DNA of 60,190 bases, counting the filler, from Thelocarpon superellum (lineage: Eukaryota): the NCBI GenBank assembly GCA_026025795.1. It is 2 parts of 2 records of this genome, joined end to end, with 100 filler letters (N's around TTAATTAATTAA, not from the genome) between each part and the next. Parts side by side here need not be neighbours in the genome. Positions count along the whole stretch, not along the records: positions 1 to 30,082 come from JAPEUG010000209.1; 1 more part is not named here. The stretch is one strand, 5' to 3'. Both the position numbers and the translations under genes were made by a program. Numbering within the stretch: the first letter of the stretch is position 1; each line of letters starts with the position of its first letter. The notes under the pieces were generated by a model that searched no databases, was not told the DNA's origin, and worked only from the letters and a program-made list of their open reading frames with translations. Shown piece by piece: positions 20,729-24,049 of the stretch.

Positions 20729-22988
20729 TCAGTCGTCTTGAGTCTTCTCAAGGATTGTCTTGATCATCTCGTTGCCCACGCGAGTTGCTTCCGGGAATCG
20801 AGGGGCAAAGTACTGCTGGATCTTCTCAAACCGATCTCGATAGCTCTCAAAATCACCAAAACTCACGCATTCGCTCCATCCCTACACCTGGTTAGCCATG
20901 GTCTTCTCATTCAAGATGGGCTGGGTCCAATGGTCGACTGGTGCAAGCATGTATCGCCAAGGCCTCTCGGTAGCGTGCGGTGCAACGTGAGAGCCAGAGC
21001 GTCCAATGAATGAAAATGCGGGCATCCGCCTATGTTTCCGGTGACGGGACTTACCCGAGCTGCAAAGGTAAACTCTAGGTCATCCGACCGAAAGGTGTTG
21101 TCGTCAATCGCAACACGTAGTACCTCTTCGAGTAAGTCCGGCGTCCGAAAGAGGTACTCCGTGACACCAAGCCAGAGCCGAAATAACTGATTCCGGCCAC
21201 AATGATCAGCTGATGGACATGCCAGACTACACGATCTGGATCTAGAGGAGCGTGGTGGGATACTGTCGTCGCGGATGGAGGGACGGGATGGAAATCTTAC
21301 CGGCGTGGAACATATCATATGATCATAAGGAACGATGCCCAGCTTCCACCAACAGTCCACCATCGCCAACAGGCTTAGGTGGTTGTTGGGCGTTCGTTCT
21401 TGCGGCACCTTACCCAGCGAAAAGCGATCCAATACCTCGTCGCGGAGGAGTAAGTCATGGTCCAGATGCGGCGTCTTGAAGACCGCTGCTCCCGCCGTCT
21501 TCACGCGCTTCTCCAGCTCTTCGCGATGCCCTCCGAGCATCAACTTGTAAAGCTCGGTGACCGACTCTGCGTACTCCTTAATCTGGATCTTGGCGGAGGG
21601 ATTGAGGATCGCAAGACCGGCGTAGACATGCCATTTATTCGAGTATATCCGCAAGGTGACATTGATCTTGACGTTTTCGATGCCACCCACATAGCGAGCA
21701 ATCTCCCACGGGAACTGCCGGTTCGCCGTCCAGGCCGTTCCCATGCTACAGGGAATCATTAGACGACAATCAGCATCGTGAACATAGGGCAGACTCACCT
21801 CAGGAAGGCAGCATGCGTGACGGCTTGGGTATCGGCTGTGATACGGTCATGGCTCTCGGCACTAAGATAAACATGTTTACACCCGAAGCAGGAGAGGATT
21901 CTCTCCACCAACTGTAGGCTTTCGTGCGAGGCTCGGTGTTTAATAAGCACCTGACGAGCTTGCCGTCAGCAAGGATCGAATGTCTGCGAAGGACAAGGTC
22001 GAGTTGGAGAAGCACCCACCAAAGGCTGGCCTTTCGGGTTCACTTGGGGACCATGAAGGGAATGGCATGATACGATCTCTACGTCTTCCGGCAGGTGCTT
22101 CTCCAGTGCCGCCATCTCGGGGGCTTTGCACGAAGTCTGGCCCCCAACGATGGCTCCTTGCTTGGTTGCTGACGCCCCGCATCAGGATTTCATTGACCTA
22201 ACACATGGGTCAGAATGACCTACATGGGCCATACTCGGCGACGACTTTGTCAATCATCCCAGCCTCTACGCTGTAGAGGATGTAGTCGCTTGCCCGTGAG
22301 ACCAGATGCCCGTTCGGATATATCTTCACGTTATTCTACCCCGACCTTAGTCTGCAACAATGGAGCAGTATGAGGAGGGCCCCTTTACCCGATCCGCAAA
22401 CTCCTCTCTCAGCGCCAGATAATTCTCCGCTCGGTCGCATGCATTTACCCTGATTCACGGCGTTGGCATCAGCATTCCATGCCACGCCTGCTTCGAACTT
22501 GACCTGCGAATATACAGTCAGCCTCTAGGGATCTTCACCGGGCATGACGATTGACGATAGGAAGTCAGAATATGCGTATCAGACAGGAAAAAGTAAGGTA
22601 GCTGAGATTTTACATCATCGTCGACCGACCGCTGGGCTGGACCATCAAGATGGACCAGACTGCGGAAGGCCAAACTCGAGCCAAATGCACTCAAGTCATC
22701 AGTGCAAACAGATGGTCATCGCGACCAGGTGATCGAGACAGGAGGAAAGGGATGGAAATTGCTTACGCTGGATCGACGCCAGTAGGACCGGCAAGGTCAG
22801 GTACTCTCCGCACGGAGCGCAGAGCCATCAAGAATTGCTTGTGGGCGATGACTTTACCTCCAACCTGCTTCGCTGATCCTTTTGGCGTACAGCTTCCCCA
22901 TGTCGCCCATGCCAATGATACCCACGGAGATCCGCTCCATCAGCTTCGAAAATTCGTGCGAGCCTCCGAACGTCATCTTCGGAGCCAT
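20729..22988 (-). CDS. TYR1: Prephenate dehydrogenase (NADP+), multi-exon
   Basis: Rossmann motif VGIIGMGDMGKLYA, VGGQTSCKAPE, HSLHGP, ENVKINVTLRIYSNKWHVYAGLAILNP, CWWKLGIVPYDHMICSTP, FRSDDLEFTFAAR. Confidence 0.95.
22577..22706 (-). ncRNA. snR13: Box C/D snoRNA, snR13 homolog, intronic in TYR1
   Basis: On the minus strand: C box TGATGA (22701-22696), then TGAGTGCATTTGGCTCGAG, later GCTACCTT, a U-rich tract and D box CTGA (22582-22579). These elements match yeast snR13 as recalled and are complementary to the LSU rRNA segment AAGGUAGCCAAAUGC. Confidence 0.88.
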
Positions 22989-23400
22989 TGAGTCAGCTAC
23001 GTTTGGGAGCCTTTGAACATCTCAAAGTCTGCGACTGGGCGTCAGGCGCGATGCTTGCTTCATTACCACCCTCAAGCTAGATGATTCAGTTGAATCAAGC
23101 GGGTAACAGTGTGAGGATGAAAGCGACGGTGCTAGACGGTCAAGTGGTTTTCTGTTTGCAACCAATCCCGCTACAAATTAGCTTGCTACCACCAGCAACT
23201 TACGCGCGTGAGTCAAAGCGAGCTAGCGAACGGCTGCCAAAGGTCCTCGAGGAGTTGTTGCGGGGTCACCTGATTTGCTCAACCCTAGGGCACACCCGAC
23301 CGAAATTATACCAACACCGCCACCACCAATTCAAGAAATCAACTCGTTTGTTGACGATTGCGTTCCAAATCCAGCCCGACTTTGAGATCCTCTGTCCATC

Positions 23401-24049
<649 letters not shown>

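Follow-up and report, generated by a model that had tools for sequence, protein, structure and literature searches.

The first intron of TYR1, the prephenate dehydrogenase gene of Thelocarpon superellum, very probably consists of two nested U2 introns, of which the inner one would be excised first and release the snoRNA snR13, the outer one would be removed afterwards, and the nesting itself would be locked in. The DNA analysed, hereafter the window, is a stretch of 60,190 nucleotides from GenBank assembly GCA_026025795.1. Its features around TYR1 are the following:

20729..22988, minus strand: TYR1, coding for prephenate dehydrogenase; open gene model of 8 exons and 444 codons
22858..22988, minus strand: TYR1 exon 1, ending in TGG AG (phase 2)
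22450..22857, minus strand: TYR1 intron 1 in its full compound extent; 408 nt, of which 145 nt are left without the inner intron
22852..22857, minus strand: outer donor GTAAAG, weak; TYR1 intron 2 starts with the same hexamer
22857-22768, minus strand: unit A; 90 nt, with GTAAAG, CCTGAC at 22801-22796 and CAG at 22770-22768
22767, minus strand: single C between units A and B
22504..22766, minus strand: candidate inner intron (unit B); 263 nt
22761..22766, minus strand: inner donor GTAAGC of unit B
22579..22701, minus strand: box C/D snoRNA snR13; box C 22701-22696, guide 22688-22679, D' region 22679-22675, box D 22582-22579
22517..22522, minus strand: inner branch point, sequence GCTGAC, with its A at 22518 and 60 nt past box D
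22504..22506, minus strand: inner acceptor CAG of unit B
22450..22503, minus strand: unit C, the 3' portion of the outer intron; 54 nt, with GTCAAG, GTTCGA at 22498 and the terminal CAG
22468..22473, minus strand: outer branch point, sequence GCTGAT, with its A at 22469
22389..22449, minus strand: TYR1 exon 2, beginning G GTA AAT and encoding R-V-N-A-C-D
23401..23840 (continuing past 23840), plus strand: RPS14 (uS11) gene; Ribosomal_S11, E=5e-15

The preliminary description of this DNA had read intron 1 as three complete intron-like units and had proposed three routes of removal: excision of B as an intron within an intron, followed by the rest (route i); joining of exon 1 to the end of B, followed by a second, recursive step (route ii); and retention of a 6-nt exon assembled by excision of B (route iii). 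Every unit and signal is present where it had been placed, and the claim that all three routes keep the frame open also holds. Direct, nested and recursive removal end in the same product, W-R-V-N within the open frame of 444 codons, and the 6-nt exon gives W-S-V-K-V-N in an open frame of 446 codons; the 1-nt exon on its own would shift the frame and lead to a stop at codon 66.

The relatives of this gene carry the name prephenate dehydrogenase, and two full-length relatives pass the PDH_C cut-off; the window's own TYR1 exons, scanned singly, give weak domain matches only (exon 4 against PDH_N, E=0.093). The folding of the whole intron 1 is unremarkable (z=-0.92). A short hairpin lies at 22733-22718, past the inner donor and ahead of box C, and the distance between these two elements in the window (65 nt) is the longest among the 34 nested clusters described below.

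Relatives and Scoring of Splice Signals

The genome collection yielded no relatives, and those used here come from a metagenome scan in which 181 TYR1 stretches were confirmed and the best 80 of the 181 kept. Ten of these 80 loci were left out because exon 1 was not found in them. The window included, this gave 71 junctions of exon 1 with exon 2, 67 recovered and four added by hand. Intron 1 occupies the same position in 70 of the 71, the remaining junction being intronless. The 68 junctions that bear snR13 were grouped into 36 clusters, with less than 72% identity between clusters. For the splice matrices, 108 distinct introns from elsewhere in TYR1 served as controls, and a branch point or donor in units A and C was scored as present at or above the 10th percentile of the controls.

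The snoRNA within Unit B

The window contains boxes C, D', C' and D together with an snR13 guide. At gathering level, an Rfam search of the window gave no match, and the snR13 family (RF01223) matches only weakly, reaching 16.9 bits where the cut-off is 47 (E=5). On the other hand, the 10-nt guide, GCATTTGGCT, is identical to that of Neurospora crassa Nc CD1 and to the RF01223 consensus, and the 3' segment also agrees with Nc CD1. Nc CD1 is listed as the N. crassa homologue of snR13, an intronic snoRNA guiding 26S Am2242 (Liu et al. 2009, PMC2780460), and the CUCGA D' region of the window matches the description of yeast snR13 (van Nues and Watkins, PMC5389607). Identity of its guide to that of Nc CD1 thus identifies the snoRNA in unit B as snR13 in spite of the sub-cut-off Rfam score, in agreement with the preliminary description. 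The guide is present in 68 of the 71 TYR1 junctions (relatives being the best 80 of 181), and the median pairwise identity of snR13 is 0.68, compared with 0.42 after shuffling. The rRNA target motif was not found in the T. superellum assembly, which may lack rDNA.

Conservation of the Inner Intron

In 34 of the 36 clusters, as drawn from the best 80 of 181 relatives, snR13 is enclosed by an inner donor, branch point and acceptor. Strong inner donors (score of at least 7.5) occur in 33 of 36 clusters, against 1.8 in shuffles (maximum 6), and an inner branch point followed by AG occurs in 34 of 36, against 5.1 (maximum 11), the significance of both comparisons being overstated because the clusters share ancestry and are not independent trials. 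In the 34 nested clusters the inner donor lies 32-65 nt upstream of box C, and an HAG acceptor follows the branch A by 11-19 nt in every case. The inner intron is separated from the outer donor by 42-124 nt and from the outer acceptor by 26-93 nt. Its length is held within 228-263 nt, with a coefficient of variation of 0.038, compared with 0.21 for the outer remainder (77-164 nt). The sequence between the signals has drifted: identity in the head (0.35 versus 0.34) and in the tail (0.22 versus 0.21) is at shuffle level, and head, donor-to-C spacer, D-to-branch spacer and tail all equal the shuffles or lie within 0.03 of them.

The inner donor scores above the outer donor in 27 of the 34 clusters and below it in three, and a G precedes it at -1 in 22 of the 34; in one cluster (L045) the inner donor, GTTCGT, is weak. 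Outer donors are also weaker than the control donors (median 6.5 versus 8.3, p=0.019, uncorrected for kinship). Aligning intron 1 across relatives, as had been suggested, gives a divided answer, since the signals of unit B are conserved and the internal signals of units A and C are at chance level. Through this conservation of unit B, route (i), a snoRNA-bearing intron within an intron removed from the inside out, is well supported. A single RNA run (8% of words shared) allowed 12 contigs to be placed, none of them across intron 1, and two of the pieces listed were unspliced.

A Proposed Splicing Path and Its Lock

From the signals, their conservation and their spacing, we infer the following order of events. 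The inner donor at 22766, a strong one, would be paired by the spliceosome with the branch point at 22518 and the acceptor at 22504, and the 263-nt inner lariat would be released, debranched and trimmed to snR13; intronic snoRNAs are trimmed from the debranched intron lariat. The 145-nt outer remainder would then be removed through its own weak donor and the more distal branch point and acceptor, giving W-R-V-N. Fungal introns are paired by intron definition, in which the smallest intron is favoured (PMC8469720), and since the inner donor is in addition the stronger one in 27 of 34 clusters, the inner intron is probably cut first.

The frame suggests how such a design could last. Joining the outer donor to the inner acceptor produces a frameshift or a stop in 32 of 34 clusters, and joining the inner donor to the outer acceptor does so in all 34. 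If the inner donor or the inner acceptor alone were lost, the remaining inner site would pair with an outer one and intron sequence would stay in the mRNA, so that neither inner signal could be lost on its own. The design therefore probably persists because it is locked.

Alternative Readings of Intron 1

The intron could instead be removed mostly in one step, with the inner signals aiding snoRNP assembly or serving the first splicing step alone. The mRNA would be identical, early branches without completed splicing have been reported in longer fungal introns (10.1101/224170), and the sole RNA run contains no inner junction, its contigs not crossing intron 1. Such a reading sits poorly with an acceptor placed at a normal distance after the inner branch point in 34 of 34 clusters and with the G that immediately precedes the inner donor in 22 of 34, as a completed splice would have, and we consider it improbable. 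Route (ii), in which joining exon 1 to 22504 would regenerate a GTCAAG donor for a second, recursive step, draws on an AG|GT that does exist, on an exon that supplies AG at -2 and -1, and on published recursive splicing in Candida snoRNA clusters and in one Cryptococcus neoformans intron (PMC5033589; 10.1101/224170). GTCAAG, however, scores -6.1, under all 108 control donors, and a GT directly follows the inner AG in only three of 34 clusters (scores -6.1, -9.0 and 3.1, all poor donors), or in four if the second AG of cluster L002 is the true acceptor; the commonest pair at this place is AT (15 of 34). Route (ii) also leaves the conserved inner donor unexplained. A similar site occurs in TYR1 intron 3 (22223-22169), where an internal TCTGAC and TAG|GTCAAT form a recursive look-alike, one among the 108 controls, and as this intron of 55 nt is too short to split, recursive-looking sites evidently arise by chance. 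A recursive zero-exon site is thus not supported, and route (ii) is the least credible of the readings, at best a very slim chance, even as a minor path.

Only slightly less improbable is route (iii), in which the exon C+GTCAA would be assembled and kept in T. superellum as a real isoform, W-S-V-K-V-N. Besides the open frame, it can claim that CCTGAC of unit A outscores 32% of control branch points and has its CAG as the first AG downstream, and that GTTCGA has a G at +5, with a similar GTTCGC found once in the 108 controls. The donor matrix, built on these 108 TYR1-only controls, ranks the true outer donor of the window, GTAAAG (-1.2), under GTTCGA (-0.2), and so carries no weight against a GTTCGA donor in the window. 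A YAG also ends 1 nt before the inner donor (YAG-N-GT, with a varying middle base) in five of 34 clusters, namely the window (22770-22761), L002, L003, L042 and L053, against 0.023 expected per position; this 1-nt offset was chosen after seeing the data, and the cases fall into two groups of kin. Against route (iii), neither flanking signal is conserved above chance: a unit A branch point with AG occurs in five of 34 clusters (5.7 by chance) and a unit C donor at the control 10th percentile in two (2.8 by chance), and L002, L003, L042 and L053 all have neither a unit A branch point nor a tail donor at that percentile. In the window itself, 30.5% of 1000 shuffles yield a comparable unit A branch point and AG, and the 29 nt between them exceed the 95th percentile of the controls (5-95% range, 8-24 nt). 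Moreover, the two-residue insert is absent from all 28 proteins with both flanks, among the 120 listed, which have one residue there (these being gene predictions). The microexon is accordingly unsupported as well, with at most a slim chance of minor use in T. superellum. Units A and C do no better than chance as introns, and the three-unit reading falls with them; the branch point and AG of unit A and the GT of unit C are mostly chance, and the recursive site and the microexon are most likely chance features of the T. superellum genome. As ideas, they add little to the nested reading.

Un-Nested Variants and Phylogenetic Spread

In an unrooted tree of 148 columns with few well-supported forks, nested forms sit beside named Dothideomycetes, Eurotiomycetes and Lecanoromycetes. 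Three un-nested loci (L072, L049 and L080) form one clade (100/99) near Microthyrium, a position that suggests loss of nesting. Two of the 36 clusters would release snR13 from such an un-nested intron, which indicates that nesting is dispensable. In L049 and L080 the un-nested intron 1 measures 485 nt and has roughly 290 nt ahead of box C, well conserved in these close relatives; an Rfam search of the L049 intron 1 gave no match. In two further loci (L066 and L067), which lack both snR13 and an RPS14 neighbour, a plain intron of 56 nt occupies the same position, and the TYR1 gene of one metagenome contig (L079) is without introns 1, 3, 4, 5 and 6.

Spacing in Nested and Ordinary snoRNA Introns

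In the 34 nested clusters, box D lies 51-69 nt from the inner branch point, compared with 79-150 nt from the outer one, and in the two un-nested clusters the lone branch point lies 58-59 nt past box D. For comparison, the T. superellum genome was searched with a donor-C-D pattern, whose limits leave out some snoRNAs, snR13 included, and which gave 69 matches against 25 in the control. Sixty-seven distinct matches were examined, with non-coding and UTR hosts not judged, and a branch point and AG follow the D box in 16 of them. Four have coding sequence on both sides (L102, snR52; L130; L132, snR38; and L129, unconfirmed), and in these box D is 48-67 nt from the branch point of a plain, un-nested intron. 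Nesting as a general rule for T. superellum snoRNA introns was discarded on these four cases. The preliminary description had supposed that nesting places the snoRNA at a suitable distance from its own branch point: the distance is indeed suitable, but plain introns match it, so that the spacing points to use of the inner branch point and not to the reason for nesting.

Some further snoRNA loci of this genome were noted. L129 (G000:C435:10197-10306, minus strand) is a 231-nt intron in a urease-like gene whose C/D-like segment has typical spacing and no Rfam snoRNA match, and it is possibly an unlisted snoRNA. L122 (G000:C379:4510) and L105 (G000:C153:11498) are snoRNA introns upstream of coding starts, with GT directly after their acceptors; L122 has an additional branch-like ACTAAC and no YAG before the ATG. 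In this pair, the Afu_190 snoRNA intron precedes the coding start of an AHA1-like gene. Polycistronic clusters, of a kind known in filamentous fungi, are present at L123 (G000:C379:25500-29200) and L120 (G000:C323), with snR73, snR75, snR76/Afu_513 and Afu_300, and Afu_455 and snR67.

The RPS14 Neighbour and a Possible Splicing Valve

TYR1 and RPS14 stand head-to-head in the window, with start codons about 410 nt apart (22988-23401), and RPS14 has this position in 48 of the 52 loci with at least 1100 nt upstream. An addition to the nested splicing order, which would leave that order in place, is that the intron-in-intron, ancient on this view, would act in this filamentous fungus as a valve separating snoRNA supply from enzyme supply. 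Through the promoter region common to RPS14, TYR1 transcription would follow ribosome synthesis and snR13 would always be supplied; owing to the weak outer donor, many transcripts would retain the outer intron, meet a stop at codon 45 and undergo nonsense-mediated decay, which would set the level of Tyr1. This agrees with a stop in the inner-only spliced product of all 34 clusters (codon 45 in the window), with outer donors weaker than inner donors and controls as given above, with the frequency of the RPS14 neighbour, and with its absence from L066 and L067, where the snoRNA is also absent. Nevertheless, the GTRRG consensus by itself gives a stop after any retained phase-2 intron, nesting occurs without RPS14 in L018 and L019 and RPS14 without nesting in L049 and L080, and the L066 correlation represents one lineage. 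We regard the valve as a tentative and rather doubtful extension of the nested reading.

Comparison with Known Nested and Recursive Introns

The closest known system is the stwintron sensu lato, one canonical U2 intron within another, described in a reticulon-like gene of Lipomyces (Ag et al. 2020, PMC7138796) and listed as a class in PMC8469720. TYR1 intron 1 likewise has nested canonical introns in a coding gene, with uninterrupted outer elements and an inside-out removal expected from intron definition. Its inner intron is complete and canonical in donor, branch point and acceptor, and the outer intron, 145 nt in the window, has its own donor, branch point and AG. By these two of three features, both of them sequence features, it may be classed as a variant of the stwintron sensu lato. 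A likeness to stwintrons with a different geometry had been proposed. In Lipomyces the two donors are adjacent or separated by 1 nt, and in TYR1 the distance between them is 42-124 nt. Furthermore, the Lipomyces case concerns few species and has been demonstrated by RT-PCR, whereas the TYR1 layout, predicted here from sequence, has a snoRNA in the inner intron and extends across at least three classes. With the [D], [L] and [A] stwintrons, TYR1 intron 1 shares nested U2 introns in Pezizomycotina genes (PMC7138796, PMC8469720); unlike in them, the inner intron leaves the outer donor, branch point and acceptor uninterrupted. An origin from an [L]-type stwintron, of which TG|AT at the inner junction would be a relic, was discarded, a branch-like junction being found in four of 34 clusters only.

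Nested splicing in C. neoformans, by which a small intron is cut from a larger one, close in size to TYR1 intron 1 (391 nt in one example), is also similar (Burke et al., 10.1101/224170). That work describes 13 cases in one species by spliceosome profiling, and the portion considered here mentions neither snoRNA cargo nor conservation. In fungal polycistronic snoRNA clusters, each snoRNA is wrapped in its own splice signals, as in TYR1, and zero- and one-base exons as well as recursive routes have been reported (Luo et al. 2013, PMC3596301; Donovan et al. 2016, PMC5033589). The hosts described there are non-coding, and their introns stand side by side and are removed mostly 5' to 3'; in TYR1 the snoRNA intron lies inside the intron of a coding gene, and the units on either side are not introns in their own right. 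As for the snoRNA itself, the likeness to Nc CD1/snR13 extends over box C, the guide, the CUCGA D' region and the 3' segment (PMC2780460, PMC5389607), and the host gene and nesting are not given in the portions of these two reports considered here. No paper on a nested TYR1 snoRNA intron was found in the open-licence literature; the TYR1 locus is not covered in the main portions of PMC8609340, PMC5824354 and PMC8476143, and the supplements of the latter two may list the host gene.

This class of intron is invisible to mRNA-based annotation. The TYR1 nesting has outlasted the divergence of its spacers to a random level, and its product, snR13, can be measured. Whether nested introns persist through selection for a function or are only locked in could readily be tested on intron 1, natural variants being at hand that are nested, un-nested (L072, L049/L080) or without the snoRNA (L066/L067). 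The fungal nested introns found described, to the extent that the reports consulted cover them, are limited to particular species or to single data sets, whereas the TYR1 case spans at least three classes.
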